Source of the DNA: Myxococcota bacterium
GTDB lineage: Bacteria; Myxococcota_A; Polyangia; Polyangiales; Sandaracinaceae
DNA: 64,000 bases
Assembly: GCA_036149055.1 (NCBI GenBank)
Contig: JAYZQJ010000191.1
Span: 1 to 64,000, forward strand
Direction: 5' to 3'
The first letter of the stretch is position 1, and every line of letters starts with the position of its first letter. The position numbers and the translations under genes were made by a program. Below, piece by piece: positions 2,334-60,588 of the stretch. The notes beneath the pieces are model-generated. The model worked only from the letters and a program-made list of their open reading frames with translations, was not told where the DNA came from and did not search any database.

Positions 2334-2397
2334 GCCGACGCGCGCGTCGGCTCCCCGTGCCCTTGCCCATGCCCGCTTCGCACATTCGAGAGCTGCG

Positions 2398-5300: not shown

Positions 5301-8196
5301 CGACGTCACCGCCGACGCCTGGTACCTCGACAACGGGCGCATGCCGCCCGGGCTGATGATCGAGAGCGGCCAGGCGGACCTCTTCCTCATCAGCTGGCTC
5401 GGCGCCGACCTGCTCAACCGGGGCGAGCGCGCCTACCGCCTGCTCGGGTGCAAGCTCACCTGGCACCGCTCGCCGCCGAAGGTCGGAGAGACGCTCTCCT
5501 ACGACATCCACATCGACGGCCACGCCAAGCAAGGCGACGTGCGCCTCTTCTTCTTTCACTACGACTGCCACGTCGGCGGCGAGCCCGCGCTCACCGTGCG
5601 GAGCGGGCAGGCCGGCTTCTTCACCGAGGCCGAGCTCGCCGAGTCGGCCGGCGTGATCTGGTCGCCCGAGGAGCAGGAGATCGAGCCGGACGCCCGCCTC
5701 GATCCGCCGGCCGTCGAGTGCGCCCGCGATTCCTTCGACGACGCGGCGCTCGAGGCCCTGAGCCGCGGCGACGTCGTCGGCTGCTTCGGCGCCGGGTTCG
5801 AGGCCACCCGCTACCACGTCCGCACCCCGAGCATCGCCGCCGGCTACAAGCGGTTCCTCGGGCGGGTCGACGCGTGGGCGCCGCGCGGCGGGCCCTGGGG
5901 CCGCGGCTACCTGAAGGCGACCACCCGCATCGCGCCCGACGACTGGTTCTTCGAGGGGCACTTCCACGAGGACCCGTGCATGCCCGGCACCCTCATGCTC
6001 GAGGGCTGCCTCCAGGCGATGGCCTTCCACCTGATCGGGCTCGGCTACTCGCTCGACCGGGACGGCTGGCGCTTCGAGCCCATCCCTGACGAGACCTACC
6101 AGATGATCTGCCGCGGTCAGGTCACGCCGACCTCGAAGGAGCTCGTCTACGAGGTCTTCGTCGAGGAGCTGCACGACGGCCCGGAGCCCAAGCTCTACGC
6201 CGACCTGCTCTGCACCGTCGACGGCCTCAAGGCCTTCCACGCGCGGCGCTTCGGGCTGCAGCTCGTGCCCGACTTCCCGGTCAGCAGCCTCACGCTCCCG
6301 AGCGACGACCGCCCCGCCGCGACCCTCGACGGAGTCGTGCTCGACCGCGCCGCGATGCTCTGCTCGGCGTGGGGCCCTCCGTCCGCCGCCTTCGGCCCGC
6401 GCTACGCCGCGTACGACGGCGTCCGGCGCCCGCCGCGGCTCCCCGGCCCGCCCTATCACTTCGTCAGCCGGGTCACCCGCTTCGAAGGCGAGGCGTGGAC
6501 CAAGAAGCCCGGCCCCTCGGTCGAGGTCGAGTACGACGTCCCGCCCGACGCCTGGTACTTCGAGGGCGGGCGCAGCATGCCGTACGCGGTGCTGCTCGAG
6601 GTCGCGCTCCAGCCCTGCGGTTGGCTGGCCACCGCGAGCGGCTGCGCGCTCGGGCGCGAGGTCGACGTCCGCTTCCGCAACCTGGACGGGGAGGGCGAGG
6701 CCCTCGCCGAGGTCCTCCCGAGCGCGGAGCGCCTGACGACCACGGCCACGCTGACCTCGGTGAGCGACACCGCCGCGATGTCGATCGTCTCCTTCGACGT
6801 CGTCACCCGCGCGGGCGACACCGAGGTGCTGCGCCTGAAGACGGTCTTCGGCTTCTTCCCGGAGGCCGCCTTCGAGGCGCAGGCCGGCTTGCCCATCGGC
6901 GACACGCATCGCCGCCTGTTCGAGGCCACCGGCGGCGCGCCCACCCACCCGCTGCCCGGCCGCGGCCGGCTGGAGCTGCTCTCCGAGGTGCCTTACCTCG
7001 ACGTCTCCGGCCTCGGCGAGGCGCGGGCCGAGCGCCCGGTCGATCCGGGCGACTGGTTCTTCCGCGCGCACTTCTTCCAGGACCCGGTCCAGCCCGGCTC
7101 GCTCGGCCTCGAGGCGATGCACCAGCTCCTGCGCCTGGTGGCGGCCGAGAAGGGCCTGACCGACGGCATGGTCGCGCCCGACTTCAGCCCGCTCGACGGC
7201 CCGCACCGCTGGAAGTACCGCGGCCAGGTCCGCCCCACCGCGGAGCGCGTCGCCGTCACCCTCGCGACGACGAAGATCGAAGGCCGCCGCATCGAGGCCG
7301 ACGCCTCCTTCTGGGTCGACGGCAAGCGCATCTACGAGGCGACGCTGGGCACGACCGCGATCGACGCCGCCTCGCGCGAGGGCGTGCGCGCCTTGTGGCG
7401 CCGCTTCCTCGGCGTGGGCGAGTGGCTCGGCGAGGACGTCTACCTCGGCCTCTTCGATCGCTTCGTCGGCGAGGTCCACGTCGCCGACGTCCGGGCCCTG
7501 CGCGGCCGGCCGGCGCTCTACGTGGCCAACCACCAGACCGCGATCGAGACCCTGATGTTCTCGCTCCTCGGTGGCGCGATCAGCGGCGTGCCGATGGTCA
7601 CCCTCGCCAAGGCCGAGCACCGCGAGAGCTGGTACGGCGAGCTGCTCGCCTGGCTCTTCGCGCACCCGGACGTGACCGAGCCGGAGCTCACCCGCTACTT
7701 CGACCGCGGCGACCCGGCGGCGCTCCCCGCGCTCCTCGAGAGCGTGCCCATCGATCGCTCGATCTTCCTGCACGGCGAGGGCACCCGCGCGACGTCGGCC
7801 GGCCAGCCCCTCGGCCCGATGAGCGGCGTGCCCCTCGACCTCGCGATCGCCCGCGGCCTGCCGGTCGTCCCCGTCCGCTTCACCGGCGGCCTCCCGCGCG
7901 AGGGCGAGCTCAAGCGCGACTTCCCGGTGGGCATGGCGCGCCAAGACGTCTTCCTCGGCGCGCCGATCGAGGCGGCGGCCCTCGCCGCGCTCCCCTACAA
8001 GGAGCGCGTGTCCCGCGTCTCCGCCGCCATCGCCGCGCTCGGCCCCCGAGAGGACGCCCCGAACGCCCCCCAGCCCGAGCTCCCCGACGCCGCTCCCCGC
8101 GCCGTCCTCGCGAGCCTCGTCGACCCGGCGTCGATCCCCGACGACCCCTGGGGCCGACGCCTCCGCGCGCTCCTCAAGGGCGCGGGCGACGGGTGA
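2398..8196 (+). CDS. pfa3: PUFA synthase Pfa3 (KS, CLF, FabA-like DH domains, C-terminal AGPAT-like acyltransferase)
   Basis: KS triad DAACASS / ECHATGT / NLGHL; second KS-like domain lacks the catalytic Cys (TVSADALSG); FabA motifs FEGHFHEDPCMPG and FRAHFFQDPVQPG; acyltransferase motifs ANHQTAIE and GEGTR. Confidence 0.9.
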   Translation: MSFDPIAIVGRGCVLPGASAPAALWDLVAAGRDALGSVPEGRWRVNPARILTSDPRQSADRAWSDRGGYVRDFPAEDRDPVFAWPLAAGRQAFAEAGLEPGRRGGVVLGNLSFPSVSHARYAENLWLGRPQDVDPRERFHSSQPAVELARSLQLAGAPSFCLDAACASSLYAIRLACEALHDGAADVMLAGAVNCSDDLFIHVGFCALDALSKTGRSRPFHPEADGLVPGEGAAVVALMRLEDARAEGRPVLGVIRGVGLANDGRARGFLAPSEEGQVRAMRAAYAQAGLSPADIAWIECHATGTPVGDAAEIRSTSQVFAGAGEVPIGSLKANLGHLITAAGAAGLLKVLGAFEHGLRPPTPHLDRVTDALADAPLRVVREPEPWTGPRRAAISAFGFGGNDAHLIVEAEAPPTRRATERRPTERAPIAVVGVGARVGTLESAEALRDALATGRGSRRADRVRLPLEGLKSPPADLEAALAQQTMILAAALDAVPADLDRERTGVLVGMQCDSEIARYGARWREGEARFAPVLKSAGVLGTMPNIPANRLNAQLDVRGPSYTVSADALSGIRALEIAARALRAGELETAIVGAVELSVEPVHASAAAAVGVEDPPGDAAVVLVLERLDVAREKGRPILSVIDDEPRERVGARLGRQLGHAHAARGLLELTALALEGRAATLHLESLGGERARVSLRPDPESDDPPLVAPPSRRHLELPAHPPSLLEPPSTLPRAPSLPAADPRWVDVPQADTLTTRLEPPAPAAAPVAPPAAQVSGDHPLLAQLQAHQAQLAATHAEFLATQQRLHEEFLASRARAFQALLGGAVVMPPSAAPPRSAPTPPPAAPPPTAPPPPTATVSAPPTPSATPPTPPTPPTPPTPAPPSREPSRGLAPATPPPAPEGPTFDKAALEIHAGGRISEIFGERFAPQDGYRVQCRMPKAPLLMADRVTGLVGEPASQGKGTVWTETDVTADAWYLDNGRMPPGLMIESGQADLFLISWLGADLLNRGERAYRLLGCKLTWHRSPPKVGETLSYDIHIDGHAKQGDVRLFFFHYDCHVGGEPALTVRSGQAGFFTEAELAESAGVIWSPEEQEIEPDARLDPPAVECARDSFDDAALEALSRGDVVGCFGAGFEATRYHVRTPSIAAGYKRFLGRVDAWAPRGGPWGRGYLKATTRIAPDDWFFEGHFHEDPCMPGTLMLEGCLQAMAFHLIGLGYSLDRDGWRFEPIPDETYQMICRGQVTPTSKELVYEVFVEELHDGPEPKLYADLLCTVDGLKAFHARRFGLQLVPDFPVSSLTLPSDDRPAATLDGVVLDRAAMLCSAWGPPSAAFGPRYAAYDGVRRPPRLPGPPYHFVSRVTRFEGEAWTKKPGPSVEVEYDVPPDAWYFEGGRSMPYAVLLEVALQPCGWLATASGCALGREVDVRFRNLDGEGEALAEVLPSAERLTTTATLTSVSDTAAMSIVSFDVVTRAGDTEVLRLKTVFGFFPEAAFEAQAGLPIGDTHRRLFEATGGAPTHPLPGRGRLELLSEVPYLDVSGLGEARAERPVDPGDWFFRAHFFQDPVQPGSLGLEAMHQLLRLVAAEKGLTDGMVAPDFSPLDGPHRWKYRGQVRPTAERVAVTLATTKIEGRRIEADASFWVDGKRIYEATLGTTAIDAASREGVRALWRRFLGVGEWLGEDVYLGLFDRFVGEVHVADVRALRGRPALYVANHQTAIETLMFSLLGGAISGVPMVTLAKAEHRESWYGELLAWLFAHPDVTEPELTRYFDRGDPAALPALLESVPIDRSIFLHGEGTRATSAGQPLGPMSGVPLDLAIARGLPVVPVRFTGGLPREGELKRDFPVGMARQDVFLGAPIEAAALAALPYKERVSRVSAAIAALGPREDAPNAPQPELPDAAPRAVLASLVDPASIPDDPWGRRLRALLKGAGDG
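4880..5100 (+). repeat. Low-complexity Pro/Thr-rich linker coding region inside pfa3
   Basis: Imperfect ccgccgact/ccgccgacg repeats encoding TPPTPPTPPTPPTP. Confidence 0.8.
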
Positions 8197-15421: not shown

Positions 15422-17935
<2,514 letters not shown>

Positions 17936-17938: not shown

Positions 17939-19060
17939 ATGGCCGAGACGTACGACGCCGAGGTGGCGATCATCGGCGCCGGCCCGGCCGGCACCGCCGC
18001 GGCCGCGCACCTCGCGAGCCTCGGGATCGACGACGTGGTCCTCGTCGACCGCCACGACTTCCCGCGCGACAAGACCTGCGGCAGCGGCATCTCCCCCAAG
18101 GGGATCAAGGTGCTCAAGGAGCTCGGCATCTGGGAGGAGGTCGAGCCCCACGCCTACTGGATCCGCGGCATCCGCATCGTCACGCCGGGCGGCCGCGACA
18201 GCTGGCAGTCGGCCGGCGACGTCGCCGAGGCCGTGGTCTGCCACCGCCGCACCCTCGATCACATCCTCTGGAAGAAGGCCGTCTCGGGCGGCGTGCGCTT
18301 CCTGCCCAACTTCGACGCCGCCGAGGCGATCGAGGAGGGCGGGCGCATGGTCGGCTTCAAGGCCCGCGACGGCCGCGAGGTCCGCGCCCGCTACACCCTG
18401 ATCGCCGGCGGCAGCCACTGCCGCGTCGGCCTGCCGGAGCTCCGGCCGCGCCGCACCATCCAGGCGATCATGGGCTGGTGGGACGACGCGGACTTCAAGC
18501 CGCACCACGTCGAGATGATCTTCGACCGGATGATCGAGCCCTACTACGGCTGGCTCTTCCCGGAGTCGGAGACGCGGGTGAACATCGGCATCACCTACGA
18601 GGATCCGCCCGGCGAGAAGAAGCACGCGCGGAAGCTCTTCCAGCAGTTCCTCGACAAGTACTACGGCGAGCGCCTCGCCAACGCGACGCAGGTCGGCGGC
18701 TGGAAGGGCCACCCGGTGGTCTGGAGCTACAAGATCGACAGCCTCACCGCGCCCGGCCGCGTCGCGATCGGGGAGTCCGGGCTGATGACCCACCCGGCGA
18801 CCGCCGAGGGCATCTACCAGGGCATGCGCTCCGGCATGCTCGGCGCCGAGGCCGTTCACTCGATCCTCCGCCGCGGCGTGGCCGAGCAGGAGGCGGGCGC
18901 GATCTACGAGCGCGAGTGCAAGAAGGCGTTCCAGCTCTCCTTCTGGGGCGGCGGCGTCTTCCGCAAGATGGTGCGCACCGACGCGCTCGACTGGGCGGTC
19001 GCGATCGGCGAGCAGCCGATGGTGCAGTCGGTCACCGCGAAGCTGATGGCGGCCATGTGA
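17939..19060 (+). CDS. Geranylgeranyl-reductase-family FAD oxidoreductase (candidate sterol double-bond reductase)
   Basis: IIGAGPAG, FPRDKTCGSGI, YGWLFP, NIGI, HPATAEGIYQGM. Confidence 0.85.
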   Translation: MAETYDAEVAIIGAGPAGTAAAAHLASLGIDDVVLVDRHDFPRDKTCGSGISPKGIKVLKELGIWEEVEPHAYWIRGIRIVTPGGRDSWQSAGDVAEAVVCHRRTLDHILWKKAVSGGVRFLPNFDAAEAIEEGGRMVGFKARDGREVRARYTLIAGGSHCRVGLPELRPRRTIQAIMGWWDDADFKPHHVEMIFDRMIEPYYGWLFPESETRVNIGITYEDPPGEKKHARKLFQQFLDKYYGERLANATQVGGWKGHPVVWSYKIDSLTAPGRVAIGESGLMTHPATAEGIYQGMRSGMLGAEAVHSILRRGVAEQEAGAIYERECKKAFQLSFWGGGVFRKMVRTDALDWAVAIGEQPMVQSVTAKLMAAM

Positions 19061-22000
19061 TGACGCCGCGGTACGACGTCGGGATCGTCGGCGCGTCGGT
19101 CGCCGGGTGCACCACCGCGCTGGCGTGCGCGAAGGCGGGGGCGCGCGTGCTCCTGCTCGAGGCCGACCCGAACGAGGCGGCCGCGCAGCACGTCGGAGCG
19201 TGGCTCCACCCGGACGCGATGGACGCGCTCGAGGGCCTCGGCGTCGACCTCGTGCCCCCCGTGGGCTACCCGACCGGCAAGGGCTACGTGCTCTTCCCGG
19301 AGGACGGCACCGAGGCCGTGGTCCTGCCGTACTCGGTGGGCCGCTTCGGCTTCTCGCTCCCGCAGGGCCTCCTGGTCGAGACGCTGCGGCAGCACTGCGA
19401 CGCCGACGAGGCGGTGACCCTCCGCTCGCCGGTCCGCGCGAGCCGCGTCGACGCGGGTACGCTCACCTGGCAGGAGCGCGGCCGCCCGCGCAGCGCCCGG
19501 GTCGAGCACGTCGTCTTCGCCGCCGGCGCGGACGTGCAGCCGATCAAGCGCGGCGCCGGCTACGTCTTCGGCGCGATCGAGCGGCCGCCGACGCACCGCA
19601 TCGCCAGCCTCGATCTGGTGGGCGCGACGCTGCCCTTCGAGGGCTTCCGACACGTCTTCGTCGGCGGCTGCGGCGTCGCGATCGCGCACCGCGTCGGCCC
19701 GGCCACCGTGCGCCTGGCGCTCGACGTGCCGCTCGGCTTCCGCGTGCCCCGCGAGGGCGGCGTGCAGCTGCTCGAGGCCTACGCGCCGTCGCTGCCGGAG
19801 GAGCTCGCCCTGCCCTTCGCCGAGGCGCTGCGCCGCGGGGCGCCGTCCTGGTCGCACGGCCGCATCCAGCCGCGCGGCAACATGATCCGCGGGGGCATCG
19901 CGCGGGTCGGCGACGCCGCCGGCAGCCTGCACCCGCTCACCGCGGCCGGCCCGAGCCTCGCGATCGCCGACGGCGTCGCCTTCGCCGAGTCCCGCTCGCC
20001 GGCCTCGTTCGCGCGCAAGCGCCGCCGCGACACCCGCCTCCCCGAGGCGATCGCGATCGGGCTCGCCGAGGTGCTGACCGACGAGGCGCCGGAGAGCGTC
20101 GCCATCCGCCGCGCGATGTACAACATGTGGCGCGACGATCCGGGCGAGCGGCTCCGCACGATGAGCTACATCGCCGGCGAGAACGAGGGGCTGCTGCGCT
20201 TCGGCGGCTCGTGTCTCCGGGTCATGCTCTCGAGCGCGGCCCGGGTGGCGAAGAGCGGCGCCCGCGGCGAGCTGCGCCACGCGCACCGGACCGGCTCGGC
20301 GCTGCTCGAGCGCATCGGCTGGATGGTCGGCGGCGCGCTCGGCTGGAGCGATCTCCTGCCCGACGCCTTCGCGGAGAAGCTCGAGGCGCGCGGCACCACG
20401 CGCTACCTCGGCGCGCTGCACCACACCGGCGAGGCCGAGGTCGTCGGGCTGCCCGCCCGGAGCGGCGGCGCGTCGTCGATCCAGACCGCGCTCGCGCGCG
20501 GCGCCCAGGCGCTGGTGAACGAGCAGGCCGAGGACGGCTCCTTCGAGGGGGAGGTCGTCTGGTGCCCGATGCTCGCCGCGCAGTACGTGCTCGCCTCGCA
20601 CGTGATGGACCGGCCGATCGATCCCGAGCGTCGGCGGCTGCTCCTGCGTCACTTCGAGGACACGTTGCTGCCCGGCGGCGCGTGGGGCCTGCACGAGAAG
20701 AGCGAGCCCTACCTCTTCGTCACCACGCTCGTGTACGTCGCGGCCCGGCTCCTCGGGGTCGACAAGGACGACGCGCTCATCCGCGAGGCGAAGGCGTTCA
20801 TCCGTCAGGAGGGCGGCGCGGTCGGCATCCCGAGCTGGGGCAAGCTCTGGCTCGCGCTCGTCGATCTCTACGCCTGGGAGGGCGTCAACCCGGTGGTGCC
20901 CGAGCTCTGGGCGACGCCGCGCTGGCTGCCGATGCACCCGAGCCGCTACTACTGCCACACCCGGCTCATCTACATGGGCATGGCCGCGCTCTACGGCGGG
21001 CGCGTGCGGCGCGAAGCGAACGCGACCATCCGCTGCGTGCGCGACGAGATCTTCCTCCAGCCGTACGGCGAGATCGACTTCGACGCCGCGCGCGAGACCC
21101 TCCGCGAGGGGGACGTGCACGACGCGCCGGGGCCGCTCCTGAAGCTGAGCTACCGGCTCCTCACCCGCTTCGAGCAGGCCAAGTCCGACGGCCTCCGGCA
21201 GAGGCTCCTCGGCGAGCTGCGCGACAAGATCCGCTACGAGCTCCGCTCGACGCACTACACCTGCATCTCGCCGGTCAGCGGCATGCTCGGCCTCCTCGCG
21301 CTCCACGCGAACGACCCGTCGGATCCCGACCTCGTGAAGGGGCTCGAGGGCTTCGAGGGCTGGATCTGGGAGGACGAGCAGGAGGGCGCGCGCATCGCCG
21401 GCGCCCGGAGCGCGACCTGGGACACCGCGTTCGCCGCCCAGGCGCTCGCGGCGGCCGCGGGTCACGTGGACGTCAGCGCGCCCCTCGAGCGCGCCGACGC
21501 CTTCCTCGCCAGCCAGCAGATCCGGCGCGGCACCGGCCTCGAGGGGCAGCACGACCGGCTCGACCCGACCGGCGGCTACTGCTTCGCCGGCGTCTGGCAC
21601 GGCTGGCCGGTCAGCGACTGCACCGCCGAGGCGATGCTCGCGCGGCTCCACAACCCGGCCGCGAAGCCGAGCGCCCGCGCGATGGAGCAGGCGGCCGAGT
21701 TCGTGCTGCGCTGCCAGAACGCCGACGGCGGCTTCGGGAGCTACGAGGCGCGGCGGCACGCGCGGCTCTCGATCGACTGGCTCAACCCGAGCGAGATGTT
21801 CGGCGCGTGCATGACCGAGCGCTCCTACGTCGAGTGCACCGCGTCGTGCGTGCAGGGCCTCGCCGCCTTCCGCGAGCGCTACCCGGACCGGCTCCGCGGG
21901 CGCGTCGACGCGGCGATCGAGGCCGGCGTCGCCCGCCTCCGCGCCGAGCAGCGCGCCGACGGCTCCTTCGAGGGCATGTGGGGCGTCAACTTCATCTACG

Positions 22001-22455
22001 GGACGCTCTTCGGGGTCCGCGGGCTGCTGGCCGGCGGCGTGCCCTGCACCGACCCGCAGATCCGCCGCGCCTGCGCGTGGCTGCTCGAGCGCCAGCGCCC
22101 CGACGGCGGCTGGGGCGAGCACTTCGCGAGCGTGCTCGAGGGCCGCTACGTGGAGCACGAGGAGGCGCAGGTCGTGCAGACCGCGTGGGCGCTGACCTGC
22201 CTGCTCGAGGCCGAGGAGCCGGACTTCGCGGCGCTCGAGCGCGCGGCCCGGCTGCTCGCCCGGACCCAGCGGTCCGACGGAACGTGGCCGAAGCAGGATC
22301 CCGAGGGGATCTTCTTCCACACCGCGCTCCTCGAGTACCGCCTCTACCGCGCATACTTCCCGCCCTGGGCGCTCGGGCTCTTCGCGAGCCGCGCCGAGGC
22401 CAGGGCCGCCTGGACCGAAGGGGGCCGCGCCGAGCGCCGCCCCGCCATCGTCTGA
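19060..22455 (+). CDS. osc: Fusion of a degenerate squalene-epoxidase-like domain and an oxidosqualene cyclase
   Basis: N-terminal domain IVGASVAG, GAWLHP, VGDAAGSLHPLT; cyclase motifs HGWPVSDCTAE, YCHTR, WGKLWLA; QW repeats QAEDGSF, QNADGGF, QRADGSF, QRPDGGW, QRSDGTW; TGATG coupling to the upstream gene. Confidence 0.88.
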   Translation: MTPRYDVGIVGASVAGCTTALACAKAGARVLLLEADPNEAAAQHVGAWLHPDAMDALEGLGVDLVPPVGYPTGKGYVLFPEDGTEAVVLPYSVGRFGFSLPQGLLVETLRQHCDADEAVTLRSPVRASRVDAGTLTWQERGRPRSARVEHVVFAAGADVQPIKRGAGYVFGAIERPPTHRIASLDLVGATLPFEGFRHVFVGGCGVAIAHRVGPATVRLALDVPLGFRVPREGGVQLLEAYAPSLPEELALPFAEALRRGAPSWSHGRIQPRGNMIRGGIARVGDAAGSLHPLTAAGPSLAIADGVAFAESRSPASFARKRRRDTRLPEAIAIGLAEVLTDEAPESVAIRRAMYNMWRDDPGERLRTMSYIAGENEGLLRFGGSCLRVMLSSAARVAKSGARGELRHAHRTGSALLERIGWMVGGALGWSDLLPDAFAEKLEARGTTRYLGALHHTGEAEVVGLPARSGGASSIQTALARGAQALVNEQAEDGSFEGEVVWCPMLAAQYVLASHVMDRPIDPERRRLLLRHFEDTLLPGGAWGLHEKSEPYLFVTTLVYVAARLLGVDKDDALIREAKAFIRQEGGAVGIPSWGKLWLALVDLYAWEGVNPVVPELWATPRWLPMHPSRYYCHTRLIYMGMAALYGGRVRREANATIRCVRDEIFLQPYGEIDFDAARETLREGDVHDAPGPLLKLSYRLLTRFEQAKSDGLRQRLLGELRDKIRYELRSTHYTCISPVSGMLGLLALHANDPSDPDLVKGLEGFEGWIWEDEQEGARIAGARSATWDTAFAAQALAAAAGHVDVSAPLERADAFLASQQIRRGTGLEGQHDRLDPTGGYCFAGVWHGWPVSDCTAEAMLARLHNPAAKPSARAMEQAAEFVLRCQNADGGFGSYEARRHARLSIDWLNPSEMFGACMTERSYVECTASCVQGLAAFRERYPDRLRGRVDAAIEAGVARLRAEQRADGSFEGMWGVNFIYGTLFGVRGLLAGGVPCTDPQIRRACAWLLERQRPDGGWGEHFASVLEGRYVEHEEAQVVQTAWALTCLLEAEEPDFAALERAARLLARTQRSDGTWPKQDPEGIFFHTALLEYRLYRAYFPPWALGLFASRAEARAAWTEGGRAERRPAIV

Positions 22456-22499
22456 GAATTCTGTCGTCGAGCCGTACCGATGCAGTCCAAGGAGCAGTC

Positions 22500-25400
22500 A
22501 TGAACCGCAGCAGCTACGACGTCGTCGTCGTCGGAGCCGGGCCCGCCGGGTGCGGCGCCGCGCTCGCTCACGCCCGCCGGGGCGCCTCCGTGCTCGTGGT
22601 CGAGGCCGACCCTCGCGCCGCGAAGCGCTTCGCCGGCGAGTGGCTCCACCCCACCGGCGTCGCCGTGCTCGACGCGCTCCGGGTCGGCCGCCTCGAGCAG
22701 GCGAGGGCCCGCGCGGGCTACGGCTTCGTCATCTTCCCCGACGACGGCAGCGAGCCGATCGAGATGGCCTACACCGAGGGCGTCGCGCTGAGCGCCGAGC
22801 ACCACGCGATCGTCGAGGCGATGCGCGACGCGCTCCGGGCCGAGGACCGGGTGGAGCTGCTCATCGGAGGCCGCGCGGTGCGGGTCGCCGACGGCGTCAT
22901 CCGGATCGAGGACAAGAAGAGCGGCCGCGCGACCGACGTGCGCGCCGGACGGATCATCGGCGCCGACGGCCGCAAGTCGACGGTGCGCGAGAGCCTCGGC
23001 GTCCCGACCCAGAAGAGCGCGCCGCTGAGCTACATGGCCTCGGTCGAGCTGCGCGACGTGGAGCTGCCCTTCGAGGGCTTCGGTCACCTCGTCCTCGGCG
23101 GACCCGGCCCGGCGCTCTTCTACCGCATCGGCGACGGGCTCATCCGCGGCTGCCTCGACGTGCCGATCGCGCTCGGCCCGAACGCGCGCTCGCTCGAGGC
23201 GCTCTGGGACGGCTTCGGCCCGGTGATGCCGGAGTCGATGCGCCCCGCGCTCCGCGCCGCCCTCGAGCGCGGCCCGAGCGGCTGGGCGATCAACCAGTTC
23301 CGCCCCCGCGCGCTCTTCGGCGCCGGCGACGTGCGGCTGGTCGGCGACGCGGTCGGCCACGTGCACCCGATGACGGCCACCGGCATGACGCTCGGCCTGC
23401 TCGACGCCAAGGCCCTCGCCGAGAGCGACAGCCTGGAGTCCTACGCCAAGGCGCGCCGGAGCTACGTGCCGGAGCTGCTGTCGAACGCGCTCTACCACTG
23501 CTTCCGCCGTGACGACCCGAGCGCGACCGCGATCCGCCGCGCGATGTTCGAGACGCTCCGCAAGGAGCCCCGCGAGCGCCGCCGCACGATGGACATCCTC
23601 GCCGGCACCGATCAGAGCCGGCGCAGCTTCGGCTCGGCCTTCCTCCGCATCGCCGCCCGCGCGGTCGGCGGCTCCCTCGAGAGCGAGCGCCCGCTGTCGC
23701 GCCTCATGAGCTTCGGCGAGTGGATGCAGTGGCCCGCCGCGCTGGTGGTGCCGAGCGGCCTCGACGCGAGCGTGCGCGCCCAGAGCAGCACGACGCACCC
23801 GATCCCGCAGCTGGCCAAGCTCACGCCGACCGCGGCCCCCGTGGCCCCGCCCGAGACGCCCGGCGGGAAGGCGCCGGCGCTCGACGTGCCGCTCACCCCG
23901 GCCCTCGAGCGCGGCACCGCGGCGCTCCTCCGGGAGCTCGAGCGGCTCGCGATGCAGTTCGGCGAGGTGCCCGACGCGACCCTGGCCGGCCCGGCGCTCT
24001 CCTGCATCCGCGCGATCACCGCGACCCGGATGCGCCTCGGCATGGCCGCGCGCATGACGCTCGGGCGTCGCCGCCTCGCCACCGAGGGCTTCCCCCGCCT
24101 CCTCGACGCCGAGCCGCACGCGCGGCACCTGGCGGAGCTCTGCCTGGTGCTCCTCGACGGCGCGCCGTGGGACGAGCAGCCGATCGCGAGCCTCGACGAG
24201 GGCGTGCGCGCGCTGCTCGACTGCCAGACCGAGAGCGGCGGCTTCGCGCGCTCCCGGGGCGTCGCCTCCTCGCCCGGCGCGGCCGGAGAGCTCGAGCTGA
24301 CCGCGCTCGCGTGTCGGGCGCTCGAGGTGGTCGCGCGCAAGGGCAAGAGCGACGCCGACCTCGGCCGCGCGCTCGAGCGGGCCGCCGACTGGGTCGTCTC
24401 GCTGCAGGGCGACGACGGCGACTTCGGCGGCGACGTCTCGCGCACCGCCTGGGCGATCGAGGCCCTCATCGCGGCCGGCGTGCACCCCGGCGATCCGGCG
24501 GCGCGTCGCGCGGTCCGCTGGCTCTCGGTGGCGCTCGACCCGAGCGGCGATCCGGTCGAGGCGGCGCGCGCCGTCCGGGCGCTCCTCGCCGCCGGCGTCT
24601 CCTCCAACGAGGCGATCGTCTCCGCGGCCCGCGGCCTCGCGTCGCTCGAGGAGACCGACTGGCGCGTGGCGCGCGAGGTGGTCGAGGCGCTCGCCGCCTG
24701 TGAGGTCCGCCGGGCCGAGCGGCCGCAGAAGCGCGCCCGTCGCCGCAAGCGCGGCAGCGACAAGTCGCCGATCGGGCCCGAGCTGAAGGCGGACTGGAAG
24801 TTCTGCCGCCAGGCGCTCGGCGAGGTCTCGCGCACCTTCGCGCGGCCGATCGAGATGCTCCCGCCGAAGCTCGAGGTCGCCGTCTCGCTCGGCTACCTCC
24901 TCTGCCGCATCGCCGACACCGTCGAGGACCACGTCGCGGTGCCCTTCGAGGTGAAGGACGATCTGTTCGCGAAGCTCTGCGCGGTGCTCGAGCACGGCGC
25001 GGATCCGGCGCCCTTCGCCGAGGCGTTCACCCACATCGAGGGCGACGACGCGGAGCTGTCCCTGGCCCGCGAGCTGCCGCGCGTGATGCGGGTCTACGAC
25101 GCGCAGGACGAGGCGACGAAGAAGGCGTGCACGCGCTGGGTCACCGAGATGGCCCGCGGCATGAGCCTCTACACGCACCGCAAGCCCGAGGCCGACGGCG
25201 TCGCGGCGCTGCACACGATCCCGGACCTCGAGCGCTACTGCTACTACGTGGCGGGCACGGTCGGGCACCTCCTGACCGACCTCTTCGTCGACGCGATCGG
25301 CGAGGACCCCGAGGGCGCGCTCGCGATCGCGATGCGGGACCACGCGGAGGGCTTCGCGACCGGCCTGCAGCTCACGAACATCCTGAAGGACGTGACCGAC

Positions 25401-25820
25401 GACCTCGCGCGCGGGGTCTCGTTCATCCCGCGCACCGAGTGCGCGCGGCAGGGCTTCTCGGTCGCCGATCTCGCCGACCCGAAGGTGCGCGACCGGGCCC
25501 ACGCCGCCGTCTCGCCGGTCTTCGACATCGCCAAGGAGCGGCTCGACGCGGCGCTCGAGTACTCGCTGCTCATCCCGTCCGAGCACCGCCAGATCCGGCT
25601 CTTCTGCCTGCTGCCGCTCTGGATGGCCGGCCGCACCCTGGCGCTCGGCCGCGGCAACGACGCGATGTTCGAGCCCGACCTGCCGGTCAAGATCACCCGG
25701 AGCGAGGTCGAGTCGCTGATCGCCGAGTGCATGACGCTCGCCGAGGACGACGACGCGCTGCGCGCTCGCTACGCGCGCCTGTTCGAGCCGGCCCAGGGCC
25801 AGCGGCGGGAGATGCGATGA
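22500..25820 (+). CDS. Fusion of squalene epoxidase, a cyclase-like QW-repeat remnant and squalene synthase
   Basis: Epoxidase motifs VGAGPAG, RFAGEWLHPTG, ADGRKS, GDAVGHVHPMTATGMT; QW repeats CQTESGGF, LQGDDGDF; squalene synthase motifs VSRTF, YLLCRIADTVED, YCYYVAGTVG, LQLTNILKDVTDD; AAGGAG RBS. Confidence 0.88.
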   Translation: MNRSSYDVVVVGAGPAGCGAALAHARRGASVLVVEADPRAAKRFAGEWLHPTGVAVLDALRVGRLEQARARAGYGFVIFPDDGSEPIEMAYTEGVALSAEHHAIVEAMRDALRAEDRVELLIGGRAVRVADGVIRIEDKKSGRATDVRAGRIIGADGRKSTVRESLGVPTQKSAPLSYMASVELRDVELPFEGFGHLVLGGPGPALFYRIGDGLIRGCLDVPIALGPNARSLEALWDGFGPVMPESMRPALRAALERGPSGWAINQFRPRALFGAGDVRLVGDAVGHVHPMTATGMTLGLLDAKALAESDSLESYAKARRSYVPELLSNALYHCFRRDDPSATAIRRAMFETLRKEPRERRRTMDILAGTDQSRRSFGSAFLRIAARAVGGSLESERPLSRLMSFGEWMQWPAALVVPSGLDASVRAQSSTTHPIPQLAKLTPTAAPVAPPETPGGKAPALDVPLTPALERGTAALLRELERLAMQFGEVPDATLAGPALSCIRAITATRMRLGMAARMTLGRRRLATEGFPRLLDAEPHARHLAELCLVLLDGAPWDEQPIASLDEGVRALLDCQTESGGFARSRGVASSPGAAGELELTALACRALEVVARKGKSDADLGRALERAADWVVSLQGDDGDFGGDVSRTAWAIEALIAAGVHPGDPAARRAVRWLSVALDPSGDPVEAARAVRALLAAGVSSNEAIVSAARGLASLEETDWRVAREVVEALAACEVRRAERPQKRARRRKRGSDKSPIGPELKADWKFCRQALGEVSRTFARPIEMLPPKLEVAVSLGYLLCRIADTVEDHVAVPFEVKDDLFAKLCAVLEHGADPAPFAEAFTHIEGDDAELSLARELPRVMRVYDAQDEATKKACTRWVTEMARGMSLYTHRKPEADGVAALHTIPDLERYCYYVAGTVGHLLTDLFVDAIGEDPEGALAIAMRDHAEGFATGLQLTNILKDVTDDLARGVSFIPRTECARQGFSVADLADPKVRDRAHAAVSPVFDIAKERLDAALEYSLLIPSEHRQIRLFCLLPLWMAGRTLALGRGNDAMFEPDLPVKITRSEVESLIAECMTLAEDDDALRARYARLFEPAQGQRREMR

Positions 25821-26524
25821 TGGGCTTCGAGCTTCCGATGATGGACAACCTCTGGTTCCACGTCGCGATCGGCATCACGCTCTTCGTCGACGCGGTCCTC
25901 CTGGTGTTCCTCAGCTGGGCCTACCGCTCGCCGCGCTTCGCGAAGTACCACATTCGCAAGCCGATGGAGATGCGGGTCAGCAAGTCGAATTACCGCTGGA
26001 CGGTGGGCGTCATCGGCCTGCTGTCGAGCAGCTCGACGGTGGTGCTCATCTACGGGCTCGCCCCGCTGACCATCAGCGAGACGACGACCACGCCCTGGTG
26101 GCTCATCGCGCTGCAGTTCTTCGGCGTGCTCTTCGTCTACGACTTCGCCTACTACTTCATGCATCGGACGATGCATCACCGGAAGCTCATGCCGCTGGTG
26201 CACGAGATCCATCACCGCGTCCGCGTGCCGAGCGCGCTCGAGAGCCTCTACCTCTCGCCGGTCGAGATGCTCGCGGGCCTGCTGCTGCTGATGGCGGTGA
26301 CGTGGGCGCTCGGCCCGGTGCACTGGATCGCCTTCGTGGCGGTCTTCTTCCTCTACTCGACGCTGCACATCGTCATCCACTCGGGGATGACCTTCCCGCA
26401 CCCGGTCTTCCGCGTGATGAACCACCTCACGATGAAGCACCACAAGCACCACCTGAACAAGCACGGTCACAACTTCGCGTCCGTGACCCCGCTGCCGGAC
26501 ATCGTGTTCGGCACCTCTGTCTGA
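25817..26524 (+). CDS. Sterol desaturase / fatty acid hydroxylase family (ERG3/ERG25-like) membrane di-iron enzyme
   Basis: His boxes HRTMHH, HEIHH, HSG, HHKHH; hydrophobic helices; ATGA overlap. Confidence 0.85.
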   Translation: MMGFELPMMDNLWFHVAIGITLFVDAVLLVFLSWAYRSPRFAKYHIRKPMEMRVSKSNYRWTVGVIGLLSSSSTVVLIYGLAPLTISETTTTPWWLIALQFFGVLFVYDFAYYFMHRTMHHRKLMPLVHEIHHRVRVPSALESLYLSPVEMLAGLLLLMAVTWALGPVHWIAFVAVFFLYSTLHIVIHSGMTFPHPVFRVMNHLTMKHHKHHLNKHGHNFASVTPLPDIVFGTSV

Positions 26525-26531
26525 GGCAGTC

Positions 26532-28202
26532 ATGTTCCTTCGCAGACCCGAAGTCCCGGAAGGGCTCAAGCCCGCGCCGGAGCTGTCCGGCGGGCTCCCG
26601 CTCGTCGGTCACACCGTCGAGTTCGTGCGCGACACGATCGGCATGCTCGAGCGCGCCCACCACGAGCTCGGCGAGGTCGCCGCGGTGCGCGTCGCCGGCC
26701 GCCGCATGGTCGCCCTCTTCGGCCCCGAGGCCCACGAGGCGGTCTTCCGCGCGAAGGACCAGGTCCTCGACCCGCGCGAGGCCTACAAGATCATGACCCC
26801 CGTCTTCGGCGAGGGCATGGTCTACGACGCCTCGCCCGAGAAGATGAACGAGCAGTTCAAGATGCTGCTCCCGGCGCTCAAGGACCGCCGCATGCGCACC
26901 TACGGGGAGACCATCCTCGACGAGGTCGAGCGCAGCGTCGCGGACTGGGGGGACGAGGGCGAGATCGACATCGTCGACTACTGCCGCGTCCTGACGAACT
27001 TCACCTCCTCGCGCTGCCTCATCGGCGAGGAGTTCCGCGAGCGCATGACCGACGAGTTCGCGCGCATCTACCACGACCTCGAGCGCGGCGTGACGCCCCT
27101 CGCCTACATCGACGCGAACCTCCCGATCCCGAGCTTCAAGAAGCGGGACGCGGCCCGGGTCCGGCTCGTGAAGCTGATCGGCGCGATCATCGACGAGCGC
27201 GCCCGGACCGGCCGGACCGGTGAGGACTTCCTCCAGACCCTGATGGAGGCCCGCTACCAGGACGGCGCGGCGCTCACCCACGACGAGATCACCGGGATGC
27301 TGCTCGCGGCGATGTTCGCCGGGCACCACACCAGCTCGGTCACCACCGCGTGGGCCCTCATCGAGCTCTGCAAGAACCCCGCGTACATGCGGCGCGTGGT
27401 CGCGGAGCTCGACGAGACCTACGGCGAGAGCGGCCAGACCGACTACCAGTCGCTCCGCAACATCCCGGTCACCGAGCACGCGGTGAAGGAGACCCTGCGG
27501 CTCTACCCGCCGCTCTTCCTGCTCATCCGGGTGGTGCAGAAGGACTGGACCTTCAAGGGGCACCACCTGCCGAAGGGCACCTGGATCCTCGTGTCACCGA
27601 CCGTCTCGCAGCGCGACCGCGAGGTCTTCACCCACCCTTACACCTTCGACCCCGACCGCTTCGCCGAGCCGCGCAACGAGGGCAAGAAGGACTGGGCGTT
27701 CATCGCCTTCGGCGGCGGCCGCCACAAGTGCCTGGGCAACGCGTTCGCGCTCCTCCAGGTCAAGGCGATCCTCGGCACGCTCCTGCGGCGCTACGAGTTC
27801 GAGCTGGTCGACCCGAAGGTGAAGCCGGACTTCCACGGCCTCGTCATCGGCCCCTCCGAGCCCTGCCGGCTGCGCTACCGCCGCCGCGAGGAGAAGGTCG
27901 CCGCCCGCCCGGCCCCGAAGGTCGAGGAGGCGCCGAAGCCGGCGCCGAAGAAGAAGGAGGAGCGAGTCCAGCTCCGGATCGCGCTCGACCTCGATCTCTG
28001 CCAGGGCCACGCGGTCTGCGTGAACGAGGCGCCGGGCGTCTTCTACGTCTCGGACGAGACCGGCAAGGTCGCCCTCCACACCGATCGCCCCGACCCGAGC
28101 CAGAACGACGCCGTGCGCGCCGCGGCCGACTACTGCCCGCAGCGCGTCATCCAGGTCCACGAAGAAGACGAAGCGCCCCTCACCTGCCCCGTGGCGCACT
28201 GA
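26532..28202 (+). CDS. cyp51: Sterol 14alpha-demethylase CYP51 fused to a C-terminal ferredoxin
   Basis: CYP51 signatures AYKIMTPVFGEGMVYD and FAGHHTS; ETLR; heme motif FGGGRHKCLG; ferredoxin motif CQGHAVC...CP. Confidence 0.92.
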   Translation: MFLRRPEVPEGLKPAPELSGGLPLVGHTVEFVRDTIGMLERAHHELGEVAAVRVAGRRMVALFGPEAHEAVFRAKDQVLDPREAYKIMTPVFGEGMVYDASPEKMNEQFKMLLPALKDRRMRTYGETILDEVERSVADWGDEGEIDIVDYCRVLTNFTSSRCLIGEEFRERMTDEFARIYHDLERGVTPLAYIDANLPIPSFKKRDAARVRLVKLIGAIIDERARTGRTGEDFLQTLMEARYQDGAALTHDEITGMLLAAMFAGHHTSSVTTAWALIELCKNPAYMRRVVAELDETYGESGQTDYQSLRNIPVTEHAVKETLRLYPPLFLLIRVVQKDWTFKGHHLPKGTWILVSPTVSQRDREVFTHPYTFDPDRFAEPRNEGKKDWAFIAFGGGRHKCLGNAFALLQVKAILGTLLRRYEFELVDPKVKPDFHGLVIGPSEPCRLRYRRREEKVAARPAPKVEEAPKPAPKKKEERVQLRIALDLDLCQGHAVCVNEAPGVFYVSDETGKVALHTDRPDPSQNDAVRAAADYCPQRVIQVHEEDEAPLTCPVAH

Positions 28203-28216
28203 AGAGAGAGCAGCAC

Positions 28217-29791
28217 ATGCAGAACGTCGCCATCGAGCTCGAGAGCACCCCCGAGGTCATCGACTGCCGCGAGCCGGCCACCCACGCGCCCCTCGGCAAG
28301 GTGCCGGTGGACGGGCCGGACGTGGTCCGCGCCAAGGTCGCGCGGGCGCGCGTCGCGCAGAAGAGCTGGGGGGAGAGCACCTTCTCGGAGCGCCGCCGCC
28401 TCCTCAAGACCATCCTCGCCCACGTGCTCGACCACGCGGACGAGCTCTGCGAGGTCGTGGTCCGCGACGCCGGCAAGACCCGCGAGAACGCGGTGATGGG
28501 CGAGATCTGGCCGGTCTGCGAGAAGCTCCGCTGGACGATCGCGAACGGCGAGAAGCACCTCCGCCCCGAGCGCATGTCGAGCGGCCTGTTCCTGCACAAG
28601 AAGGCCACCGTCCTCTACCAGCCGCTCGGCGTCATCGGCGTGATCTGCCCGTGGAACTACCCGCTGCAGAACGTGCTCGGGCCGACCATCCCGGCGCTCT
28701 TCGCGGGCAACGCGGTGGTGGTGAAGGTCTCCGAGCAGGTCGCGTGGTCGTCGGCGCGCATGCAGCGCATCTTCGACGAGGCGTTCGACGCGCTCGGCTA
28801 CCCGAAGGACACCGTGCAGATCGTCAACGGCTACGGCGAGACCGGCGCCGCGCTGGTCCGCTCGGGCGTCGACAAGGTGATCTTCACCGGCTCGGTCCCG
28901 AACGGCCGGAGGATCATCGAGGGCAGCGTCGAGAACATCACGCCCGTCATCCTCGAGCTCGGCGGCAAGGACGCGTTCATCGTCTGCGAGGACGCCCACA
29001 TGGAGCAGGCGGTGCACGCCGCGCTCACCGGCGTGTTCATCGCGGCCGGCCAGAACTGCATGGCCGCCGAGCGCGTGCTCGTGCACGCGAAGGTCTACGA
29101 CGACTTCGTCGGCCGCCTCGTGAGCGAGGTGAAGAAGCTCCGCGTGGGCGACGCGCCGCAGGGCGCGGTCGACGTGGGCGCGCTCGTCTCGCCGCAGCAG
29201 GTCGAGATCGTCGAGCGGCTCGTGAACGACGCGGTCGAGAGCGGCGCGCGGGTCCTCGTCGGCGGCAAGCGCGGCGATCGCCCGGGCCAGTTCTTCGAGC
29301 CCACCGTGCTCGTCGACGTCACCCCGGACATGGCGATCATGAACGAGGAGGTCTTCGGCCCGGTGATGTGCGTGCACCGCTACGAGACCGACGACGAGGC
29401 GATCGAGATCGCCAACGGCACCCGCTTCGGCCTCGGCTCCACCGTGATGAGCCGCTCGGGCACGCGCGCCCGCCGCCTCGCCGAGCGCCTCCGCGTCGGC
29501 TCCTGCACCATCAACGACTTCGGCTTCACCTACATGGCGCAGGACCTGCCCTTCGGCGGCGTGGACGCCAGCGGCTTCGGTCGGCTCAACGGCCGCGAGG
29601 GCCTGCGAGGCTGCACCAACCAGAAGGCCATCCTCGAGGATCGGCTGCCGCTGCACATGCCGGCCAAGCTCTACCCGGTGAAGCCCGAGGTCTACCCGCT
29701 CGTGCGCGGGGTGCTCCGGACGCTCTACCAGCCGACCCTGACCGGCCGCGCCAAGGCGGTGGTCGAGCTCGCCAAGAACCTCCGCCGATGA
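28217..29791 (+). CDS. Aldehyde dehydrogenase
   Basis: PWNYP, FTGS, LELGGKD, GQNCMA, EEVFGP. Confidence 0.93.
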   Translation: MQNVAIELESTPEVIDCREPATHAPLGKVPVDGPDVVRAKVARARVAQKSWGESTFSERRRLLKTILAHVLDHADELCEVVVRDAGKTRENAVMGEIWPVCEKLRWTIANGEKHLRPERMSSGLFLHKKATVLYQPLGVIGVICPWNYPLQNVLGPTIPALFAGNAVVVKVSEQVAWSSARMQRIFDEAFDALGYPKDTVQIVNGYGETGAALVRSGVDKVIFTGSVPNGRRIIEGSVENITPVILELGGKDAFIVCEDAHMEQAVHAALTGVFIAAGQNCMAAERVLVHAKVYDDFVGRLVSEVKKLRVGDAPQGAVDVGALVSPQQVEIVERLVNDAVESGARVLVGGKRGDRPGQFFEPTVLVDVTPDMAIMNEEVFGPVMCVHRYETDDEAIEIANGTRFGLGSTVMSRSGTRARRLAERLRVGSCTINDFGFTYMAQDLPFGGVDASGFGRLNGREGLRGCTNQKAILEDRLPLHMPAKLYPVKPEVYPLVRGVLRTLYQPTLTGRAKAVVELAKNLRR

Positions 29792-31392
29792 TCGAGACGT
29801 TCGACTACGTCGTGGTCGGCGGGGGCTCCGCCGGCTGCATCGTCGCGGCCGAGCTGAGCGAGGATCCGCGCGTCCGGGTGCTGCTCCTCGAGCGCGGGGA
29901 CGACGCGCAGGAGCACCCCGAGACGCTCCGCGCCGACGGCTACAAGGACGCGTTCGCGAACGACGCGCTCGTGCTCGAGCGCTTCAGCGTGCACGCCGAT
30001 CGCTGGGGTGACCGCCGGCTCTTCATGGGCTCGGGGCACGGCCTCGGCGGCAGCGGCAACATTAACGGCATGGTCTACACCCGCGGCGCAAAGGTCGACT
30101 ACGACGCCTTCCCCGAGGGCTGGCGCTGGGCCGACGTGGTGCCCGACTTCGAGCGCATCGAGGCGCAGCTCCGCCCGCGCCCCCGCGCGGCGACGGCCTT
30201 CACCGAGGTCTGCCTCGACGCGGCCGAGGAGGCGGGCTTCGCGCGCTCGAAGGACCTGAACGACGGCGACCTCGGCGGGGTGCTCGGCTACGAGCACATG
30301 AACTACGAGGGTGACGACCGGCGCAGCAGCTACGTCGCCTTCCTCCTGCCCGCGCTCGACCGCGGCAACCTCGTGGTCCGCACCAACGCGAAGGTCGAGC
30401 GCCTCACCGTCGACGAGCGGGGCGTCACCGGCGTGCGCTACGCCTGGGACGGCGGCGACCACGAGGCGCGGGCGGTCCGCGAGGTGGCGATGTGCGCCGG
30501 CGCCCTCGAGACGCCGCGCCTGCTGATGCTCTCGGGCATCGGGCCGAGCGGCGCGCTCCGGCACGTGGGCCTGCCCGCGGTGCACGAGGTGCCCGGGGTG
30601 GGCGAGAACCTCCACGACCACCCGAACGTGAGCCTCTTCTTCCGCGGTCAGCGCGAGGTCGACTGCAACTACCCGCAGCTCTACGGCTTCCACCGCGCGA
30701 ACGAGGCGACCGACCTGCCCGAGGGCGCGAGCGACACCTGCTACGTCTTCTACCCGGCCCGCAGCTCGCTCAAGGAAGCGATGATGCGCATGCTGCCGAC
30801 GCTGGTGCTGCCGGAGCCGCTCTACGATCTGCCCGCGATGCCCAAGCTGGTGCGCGGCGGCGTGCGCCTCGCCTTCGGGCCGCGCGCGATGCGAGAGGCG
30901 GTCAAGCGCGTCTACGGCATCGTCGTCATCCTCGGCAAGCCCAAGAGCCGCGGCCGGCTCCGGCTCACCGCCTCGAGCCCGAGCGCCCCGGCGGCGATCG
31001 ACCCGGGCTACTTCGCCGACCCCGAGGACATGGAGACGATGATCCGCGGCGTCGAGCGCGCCCGCCGCATCGCCCGCGCGCAGCCGCTCCGGTCGTGGGG
31101 CAACACGGAGCTCTTCCCCGGCCTGCTCGGGCGCTCGCGCGACGCGATCGAGGGCTGGATCCGGCAGAACGTGATGACCACGTATCACTACGCCGGCACC
31201 TGCGCGATGGGCGACAACGGCGCGAGCGTGTGCGATCCGCGCCTCCGGGTGCGGGGCGTGCGCGGCCTCCGGATCGCCGACGCCTCGGCCATCCCGTTCA
31301 CGCCGGTCTCGGCCCTCAACGCCCCCTCCATGCTGGTCGGCCACCGCGCCGCCCGCTTCATGCGCGAAGAGTCCCCAAGCGTGGACGCCTGA
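29788..31392 (+). CDS. GMC (choline dehydrogenase-like) oxidoreductase
   Basis: VVGGGSAG, GLGGSGNINGMVY, VGENLHDH, YHYAGTC, RIADAS; ATGA overlap with the ALDH gene. Confidence 0.92.
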   Translation: MIETFDYVVVGGGSAGCIVAAELSEDPRVRVLLLERGDDAQEHPETLRADGYKDAFANDALVLERFSVHADRWGDRRLFMGSGHGLGGSGNINGMVYTRGAKVDYDAFPEGWRWADVVPDFERIEAQLRPRPRAATAFTEVCLDAAEEAGFARSKDLNDGDLGGVLGYEHMNYEGDDRRSSYVAFLLPALDRGNLVVRTNAKVERLTVDERGVTGVRYAWDGGDHEARAVREVAMCAGALETPRLLMLSGIGPSGALRHVGLPAVHEVPGVGENLHDHPNVSLFFRGQREVDCNYPQLYGFHRANEATDLPEGASDTCYVFYPARSSLKEAMMRMLPTLVLPEPLYDLPAMPKLVRGGVRLAFGPRAMREAVKRVYGIVVILGKPKSRGRLRLTASSPSAPAAIDPGYFADPEDMETMIRGVERARRIARAQPLRSWGNTELFPGLLGRSRDAIEGWIRQNVMTTYHYAGTCAMGDNGASVCDPRLRVRGVRGLRIADASAIPFTPVSALNAPSMLVGHRAARFMREESPSVDA

Positions 31393-49445: not shown

Positions 49446-49457
49446 ACCCTGGAACAC

Positions 49458-49473
49458 AGCAACCGACGTGCCC
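49458..49473 (-). promoter_or_regulatory. Putative sigma-54 promoter of the TopIB gene
   Basis: GGGCAC-GTCGG-TTGCT (near consensus), 13 nt before the GTG at 49445. Confidence 0.6.
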
Positions 49474-50212: not shown

Positions 50213-50216
50213 TCTG

Positions 50217-59495: not shown

Positions 59496-59498
59496 GTG

Positions 59499-60584: not shown

Positions 60585-60588
60585 GTCG

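Follow-up and report, generated by a model that had tools for sequence, protein, structure and literature searches.

The stretch of DNA analysed here (the window, 64,000 nucleotides; contig JAYZQJ010000191.1 of assembly GCA_036149055.1, from a Myxococcota bacterium of the family Sandaracinaceae) contains a sterol operon with two neighbouring fusion genes at its core, which we call A and B. Both start with an epoxidase domain, lie on the forward strand and are 44 bp apart:

19060..22455, forward strand: gene A, epoxidase-like domain and complete oxidosqualene cyclase, 1131 residues (AlphaFold2 pLDDT 92, pTM 0.92)
19060..20394, forward strand: N-domain of A, residues 1-445, probable pseudo-enzyme that has the squalene epoxidase fold but eroded residues at the FAD site and in the pocket
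20491..22386, forward strand: C-domain of A, residues 478-1109, oxidosqualene cyclase with VSDCTAE and a valine at the 453-equivalent, predicted lanosterol type
22500..25820, forward strand: gene B, a single chain of 1106 residues with an epoxidase, a barrel derived from a cyclase, and a squalene synthase (AlphaFold2 pLDDT 93, pTM 0.75)
22500..23780, forward strand: N-domain of B, residues 1-427, squalene epoxidase whose GxGxxG, ADG and GD motifs are intact
23892..24719, forward strand: middle region of B, residues 465-740, oxidosqualene cyclase beta-barrel lacking the gamma domain, DCTAE and the active-site loops
24792..25760, forward strand: C-domain of B, residues 765-1087, squalene synthase in which the two aspartate-rich motifs are present

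The N-domain of gene A matches human SQLE in fold (TM 0.80 by target) and retains the carboxy-terminal helices. Its match to the Pfam SE family is weak (24 bits), with the structure match and the trees both indicating descent from squalene epoxidases. The cyclase domain scores 461 bits against TIGR01787 (cut-off 323, passed) and 713 bits against TIGR03463, below that family's cut-off of 851, and aligns with human lanosterol synthase with an E-value of 9e-127. It contains two barrels, the DCTAE motif and Val at position 453; we read it as a lanosterol-type cyclase because of this valine, following the Val/Ile rule for product type given in PMC4919349. GASVAG, GAWLHP, FAAGAD and DCTAE start at residues 11, 46, 153 and 853, respectively. 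The high pTM suggests that the two domains of the modelled A chain pack in a fixed way.

The N-domain of gene B has an SE match of 68 bits, and its best match in the PDB is also human SQLE (E-value 9e-23, TM 0.81 by target). It combines the epoxidase fold with intact GxGxxG, DG and GD motifs, which we take to be the flavin motifs of squalene epoxidases; a literature search for a source on the DG motif gave nothing useful. GAGPAG is located at residue 12, GEWLHP at 46, ADG at 155, DTVED at 806 and DVTDD at 964, and GDA is also present. The C-domain matches PF00494 (SQS_PSY) with 146 bits; its top NCBIfam match is TIGR01559 (120 bits, below the equivalog cut-off of 287). With the SQS_PSY fold and two aspartate-rich motifs, it is nearer to squalene than to phytoene synthase. 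The human proteins that best match these domains in sequence or fold, SQLE (6C6N) and lanosterol synthase (1W6K), are separate, single-function proteins.

The N-domains of A and B are 33% identical over 518 columns (E-value 1e-53), in an alignment that takes in GYVLFPEDG/GFVIFPDDG, LPFEGF and AIRRAMY/AIRRAMF. A preliminary description of this DNA, made from the letters alone, had pointed out these homologous domains, the DCTAE motif kept in the cyclase of A, the intact FAD motifs of B and the synthase appended to B; all of this stands, and its quoted motifs that were searched are all in place. A 10,808-base contig from another run covers positions 19951-30758 without a gap, so the A and B frames are not an assembly artefact; together with the separate A and B frames found across the family, it also rules out a frameshift artefact.

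The middle region of gene B matches cyclase families faintly. In hhalign it reaches 99.7% and is collinear with the carboxy-terminal beta-barrel of A-type cyclases (cyclase positions 284-645), and the AlphaFold2 model of it is all-helical and well folded. It lacks both the DCTAE acid motif and the gamma domain of an oxidosqualene cyclase. The preliminary description was right that this cyclase remnant has no DCTAE, but with about 280 residues it forms a complete folded barrel rather than a short scrap. DCTAE occurs in none of 152 B-type middle regions, longer B homologues included, ruling out an intact cyclase hidden in the latter; stray DxDD strings occur in 15 of the 152, all remote from the catalytic position.

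A and B are the only SE family matches in the source genome. The nearest named relatives belong to the Sandaracinaceae. Among 31 other Sandaracinaceae genomes, 28 contain two such matches, one contains one and two contain none (27 of 30 have two if the unpublished genome G023 is left out). A lies upstream of B on the same strand in all 28 loci holding the end of A and the start of B; the genes are directly adjacent in 16 of these and have one gene between them in 12. This intervening gene is an ERG4/ERG24-type reductase in 11 loci (Pfam-confirmed in two, assigned by shared sequence in the others) and a P450 in one. In L001 (1242-4081 and 9971-13434), hydroxymethylglutaryl-CoA reductase (HMGR) and gene B are spread over several frames, and in L061 (7163-12150) the synthase of B has its own frame; sequencing error or a real split may explain either.

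Outside the family, the two types occur apart. Forty loci were fetched, 20 of which hold an A-type fusion (one cut at a contig end); they belong to the families coded f18 and f3, and the label Polyangiaceae-type that we use for them derives from motifs shared with named Polyangium proteins. A B-type gene is present in none of the 20, and 19 have a separate squalene synthase, either free or fused to SdmB or HMGR. The aspartate of the ADG motif is absent in all 20. A is the sole strong SE family match in eight of ten A-only genomes tested, a search that did not extend to the fatty-acid-hydroxylase-type AltSQMO. The idea that loss of this aspartate means a dead enzyme is thereby ruled out, as aspartate-less A types serve as sole epoxidases elsewhere. 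Eight stand-alone epoxidases also lack it; stand-alone enzymes heading epoxidase-synthase-HMGR-cyclase operons (L071, L072, L088, L091 and L092) represent a second independent loss. A pattern search did not find the canonical DCTAE string in the epoxidase-cyclase fusions of L115 and L116, and G462, the source of L115, contains a second, stand-alone epoxidase.

B types outside the family adjoin stand-alone cyclases in the loci examined, which do not include that of Cystobacter fuscus P0061. Their barrel is full in L060, L122 and L125-L127, shortened in L090 and L094, and gone in L068, L128 and L129; it is also deleted in P0118. Both the death of the barrel and the loss of the ADG aspartate are thus independent of the pairing of A with B, being found where the partner is absent. 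Judged from this distribution of sequences, the loss of the aspartate predates the pairing and is no sign of death. The preliminary description had proposed reciprocal decay. The erosion of A, found only in the family that has B, agrees with this, but the decay was not simultaneous: the barrel is already dead beside stand-alone cyclases, and the aspartate is gone where A is the sole epoxidase.

For the erosion itself we scored 11 sites, numbered as in human SQLE via an alignment and picked after that alignment had been seen; their flavin roles are largely presumed. In the source genome, B keeps 11 of 11 and A keeps five; the six lost flavin-binding and pocket residues include the second glycine of GxGxxG. 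Ten or 11 sites are kept in 88 of 90 scorable Polyangiaceae-type A rows and in 75 of 75 family B rows. Family A goes from 9-11 sites in its 33 basal rows through 7-10 in the 17 rows of the following group to 5-7 in the 10 rows of the subgroup that includes the source genome. An independent profile, built from 115 stand-alone epoxidases only, gave medians of 530 bits for Polyangiaceae-type A, 433, 386 and 336 bits for family A, and 534 bits for family B; A and B of the source genome score 329 and 546 bits. The ratio of epoxidase to cyclase tree length is 1.53 in 21 family loci versus 1.08 in 19 outside loci. Of the two FAD motifs of A that the preliminary description called broken, only the GxGxxG change is peculiar to the subgroup; the ADG loss is shared with the outside A types. 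From its sequence, the epoxidase of A is probably inactive in this genome, though not surely so across the whole family.

Ratios of nonsynonymous to synonymous substitution (dN/dS) for seven family pairs, calculated by the simple NG86 method on GC-rich sequences, were 0.05-0.49 for the N-domain of A, 0.08-0.34 for its cyclase and 0.07-0.49 for the barrel of B. The N-domain of A and the barrel are under purifying selection, and the change in the epoxidase of A was, from these sequences, probably episodic. All 60 family A rows share the tryptophan, histidine and proline of the GEWLHP loop, whereas other sites differ between rows, among them the residues equivalent to human Tyr335 in the pocket. 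The equivalent of human Tyr195 was considered as a marker of activity and ruled out, since all 75 family B rows and nearly all bacterial enzymes have Phe there.

Two other roles for the N-domain of A can be weighed against these data. It might still be a flavoenzyme, acting as a back-up epoxidase or on a new substrate. That its aspartate-less relatives act alone, that eight stand-alone enzymes share the loss, and that 10 or 11 sites survive in 26 of the 33 basal rows of family A would fit such a role, but given the six sites lost from the A protein of this genome, the second glycine of GxGxxG among them, and the seven or fewer kept in 10 of 10 rows of its subgroup, we find it very doubtful. 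Alternatively, it may have become a non-catalytic lipid-binding module that catches oxidosqualene for its own cyclase, or a sterol sensor regulating that cyclase. The kept fold and carboxy-terminal helices and the invariant loop residues are in line with this, as is a 1015-residue A-type frame (L074:3832-6876) in a small genome of the family that persists although its cyclase is degenerate too and lacks DCTAE; the variable Tyr335-equivalent pocket residues argue against it, and we regard such a module as unlikely. In the genome with this frame (G009, 2.9 Mb, 75% complete), B was not found with the query used.

The relationship of the two epoxidase domains was analysed with FastTree (400 rows) and with IQ-TREE (52 rows, from that set and later loci) under LG+G4, with no mixture model and a single long outgroup. 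The epoxidase-cyclase fusions all cluster in a single clade (100/99), and this groups in turn with stand-alone enzymes of cyanobacteria and Gemmataceae (100/99). The family B domains (97/89) group with Cystobacter fuscus P0061 (98/81), and some stand-alone epoxidases nest among the B types. Monophyly of family A plus family B (9 + 9 rows) is rejected by 225 log-likelihood units (p-AU, from the approximately unbiased test, 1.3e-6), and that of all A plus all B (41 fused rows versus 11 stand-alone rows) with a p-AU of 0.0027; the two domains of the source genome do not form one clade.

These trees bear on the preliminary proposal of a tandem duplication into sister paralogs, which that description had itself made dependent on the domains being sisters. 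Adjacency and the shared amino-terminal homology are what such an event, recent and with simultaneous reciprocal decay in this lineage, would leave behind, but with the rejection of the family A plus family B grouping, and with the B epoxidase about 55% identical to Cystobacter P0061 and about 35% to A, we find it hardly credible.

The other genes of the operon can be placed in the same way. The synthase of B groups with those of Cystobacter and other B types (96/82), separated by a 100/100 branch from the synthases of A operons. In quick trees, the family HMGR (SH-aLRT 100) and cyclase (97) group with A-type operons; for the cyclase, this agrees with Lee and Welander 2025 (PMC12004948) as far as its accessible text goes. 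A profile of the barrel, searched against 1.84 billion representatives, found B types and then generic QW-repeat proteins through summed repeats, so best single-domain scores were used for comparison. Their medians are 88 bits for A-type cyclases, 75 for stand-alone Val-type, 59 for stand-alone Ile-type and 41 for DxDD-type cyclases. As the A-type cyclases score highest, B probably descends from some ancient epoxidase-cyclase fusion, judging by these sequence scores.

We consider it probable that the core of the Sandaracinaceae sterol operon is a mosaic of two older fusion lineages. From the computed domain content, conservation, trees, residue erosion and selection we infer the enzyme activities, the inactivity of the N-domain of A, the direction of the gain and the structural role as follows. 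The starting point would have been an A-type operon with HMGR, its own synthase, SdmB, a geranylgeranyl-reductase-family gene (GGR) and an active epoxidase-cyclase fusion. This operon would have acquired a B-type gene with its barrel already dead and lost its own synthase; the epoxidase of A, then redundant, would have shed catalytic residues stepwise, most of all in the subgroup of the source genome. In the present operon, by established sterol chemistry, the C-domain of B would convert two farnesyl diphosphate (FPP) molecules to squalene and its N-domain squalene to oxidosqualene. The latter would reach A most simply via diffusion in the membrane; there, the cyclase would turn it into lanosterol, to be passed on to neighbouring demethylating and reducing enzymes. 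The division of labour put forward in the preliminary description, with B making squalene and oxidosqualene and A cyclising the latter, is thus supported at the level of predicted domains. Most likely, the inactive domains are retained chiefly for the chain to which they belong, helping it to fold, spacing its parts or placing it at the membrane, since each also occurs in genomes that lack the partner and some lineages do without the barrel.

Several observations weigh against this mosaic origin or its details. The pairwise dN/dS of the N-domain of A is not consistently higher than that of its cyclase, leaving present-day relaxation unsupported. Residue mapping can mislead, given that the Tyr195 equivalent is Phe even in B. 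In Sandaracinus amylolyticus, A (P0145) retains GxGxxG and GD, so A may not be dead family-wide. Two of the ten A-only genomes have a second, stronger stand-alone epoxidase. Deep branches among the B types are open, and the root depends on one long branch. Operons of family f9 pair B with a stand-alone cyclase of the same clade as that of A, and the barrel, by its scores, is closest to A-type cyclases, making an ancient duplication with differential loss possible.

Under such a duplication, an epoxidase-cyclase fusion was copied early in this order and one copy became B; this family kept both copies adjacent, whereas in other families one copy disappeared, and in some of them the fusion came apart, with the same present functions as in the mosaic. 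It would account for the affinity of the barrel and the f9 operons, for the stand-alone epoxidases nested among B types, which imply that fissions occur, and for the constant order of A before B on one strand (28 of 28 loci). It does not sit well with the distant synthase lineage that A operons have of their own, with family B being sister to the Cystobacter protein rather than to B types of nearer families, or with the rejected monophyly of all A plus all B, and A would need to have remained active long enough to serve alone elsewhere. We hold it to be unlikely.

A further alternative concerns function, and like the lipid-binding module it is compatible with any of these histories. The pseudo-epoxidase of A, the dead barrel of B, or both, might bind the other chain in a docking heterodimer that channels oxidosqualene from B to A. 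The purifying selection on both domains in the seven pairs, the two epoxidase domains kept in 28 of 31 family genomes and the co-orientation of the genes, with direct adjacency in 16 of 28 loci, are compatible with this. Yet the barrel is retained beside stand-alone cyclases that have no epoxidase domain and has been wholly deleted in the four cases above, the N-domain of A persists without B, 12 of 28 loci have another gene between A and B, and human SQLE is described as monomeric in solution in PMC6327030; docking therefore appears quite unlikely. Similarly improbable is a two-chain FPP-to-lanosterol metabolon that arose once two unrelated fusion genes had come together in one operon, with the epoxidase of A, relieved of its catalytic task, turning into a module that binds B for docking or hand-over. 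Were it real, the ancestral contact between epoxidase and beta-barrel would perhaps be reused in trans, and its birth could perhaps be traced as a gradient across one bacterial family.

Genes A and B are part of a co-oriented run in the order HMGR-SdmB, GGR, A, B, hydroxylase-family gene, P450-ferredoxin, aldehyde dehydrogenase and GMC oxidoreductase:

15422..17935, forward strand: HMGR in frame with an SdmB-like short-chain dehydrogenase/reductase, with a ribosome-binding-like site and an ATG at 16814 ahead of the SdmB part
17939..19060, forward strand: GGR, its stop overlapping the start of A (TIGR02032 157 bits, cut-off 159)
25817..26524, forward strand: fatty-acid-hydroxylase-family gene, possible sterol desaturase or oxidase, its start overlapping the stop of B (PF04116 75 bits)
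26532..28202, forward strand: cytochrome P450-ferredoxin fusion (PF00067 and Fer4_13/15)
28217..31392, forward strand: aldehyde dehydrogenase (28217-29791) and GMC oxidoreductase (29788-31392), with which the co-oriented run ends

By its position, and after the accessible text of PMC12004948, the GGR gene probably encodes the C-24 sterol reductase Bsr. The P450-ferredoxin fusion may be of the CYP51-ferredoxin type, a label suggested by its architecture and context. The hydroxylase-family gene, the aldehyde dehydrogenase and the GMC oxidoreductase follow B only in the nearest relatives (L003, L006 and L045), and the genes of 25817-31392 suggest subgroup-specific sterol tailoring or breakdown; the source genome has 12 PF04116 matches. 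The stretch is present in eight RNA runs from two studies, and contigs of four cover the cluster, but neither transcription nor co-transcription can be read from them. Of the distinct HMGR-SdmB fusions in the family, 19 of 22 have a ribosome-binding-like site and ATG before SdmB, versus 1 of 10 synthase-SdmB fusions, counted with four duplicates dropped and no chance control. Their retention is weakly consistent with the loss of a synthase gene from between HMGR and SdmB, and the internal ATG makes two products from this frame possible. Related operons have HMGR, squalene synthase and SdmB in one frame (L115:3626-7582), and further synthase-SdmB and HMGR-synthase fusions occur among L106-L110, L112, L117-L119 and L116.

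About 7 kb past the end of the window, on the reverse strand (G000:C191:71092-73146), lies another triterpene-cyclase-like gene, which contains a DCDD motif and resembles squalene-hopene cyclases. Elsewhere in the window, positions 6-8196 contain polyketide or polyunsaturated fatty acid synthase-like genes with KR, DH, KS and FabA-like domains. Positions 48318-51380 contain genes for a bacterial type IB topoisomerase and a baeRF-family release-factor-like protein. A region of lower GC content (53869-62341), with a DUF2169, DUF6531 and RHS-repeat gene and a second DUF2169 gene, resembles a polymorphic toxin or secretion locus.

Epoxidase-cyclase fusions are already in print. MsbE (2020), as described in PMC7074536, resembles gene A in joining an N-terminal epoxidase to a lanosterol cyclase of the Val type; compared by description only, it has discernible flavin-binding residues and a synthase on another scaffold, whereas gene A is eroded and adjoined by a second, intact epoxidase fused to a synthase. 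Brown et al. 2023 report 'fused SMO/OSC homologs' (PMC10070321, available text). For S. amylolyticus, which makes cholesterol according to the literature, the consulted text of PMC12004948 gives a single sterol cluster with a GGR-family reductase and a cyclase sister to Polyangium cyclases, and says nothing of fusions, of a pair of epoxidase domains or of a dead barrel. Both types are encoded in that species, as here, A as P0145 and B as P0027, and its A is less eroded. Cystobacter fuscus P0061 (1163 residues) has the same epoxidase-barrel-synthase architecture as B. The A-clade fusions of Polyangium aurulentum (P0166) and Polyangium sp. (P0228) have likewise lost the ADG aspartate; unlike A, they keep the other scored residues intact, and in related loci the synthase is separate and B is absent. 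Tyr195, Phe in B and most bacterial homologues, is required in human SQLE according to PMC6327030.

These fusions go unmentioned in the accessible texts of PMC8237579, PMC7306690, PMC4919349, PMC12324236, PMC10202945 and PMC12004948 with its preprint, as well as in word searches of the obtainable supplements of PMC8237579, PMC7306690 and PMC12004948. No description of the B architecture, the A-B pair or the pseudo-epoxidase was found in the literature, a result that leaves room for a figure or table label or a mention in a subscription journal; nor was the mosaic origin found in print. The chemistry is that of a known pathway; the arrangement appears to be new.

Myxobacterial sterol genes have a central place in discussions of the origin of eukaryotic sterol synthesis, in which squalene epoxidase trees are used. 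The Sandaracinaceae have two epoxidase domains of different origins, one of them fast-evolving and probably dead; choosing this cyclase-fused domain can for that reason mislead trees and annotation. Gene B is a candidate natural one-chain FPP-to-oxidosqualene enzyme, which would be useful in triterpene engineering if active. The family as a whole offers a graded series from presumably active enzyme to probable pseudo-enzyme, with a cultured member.

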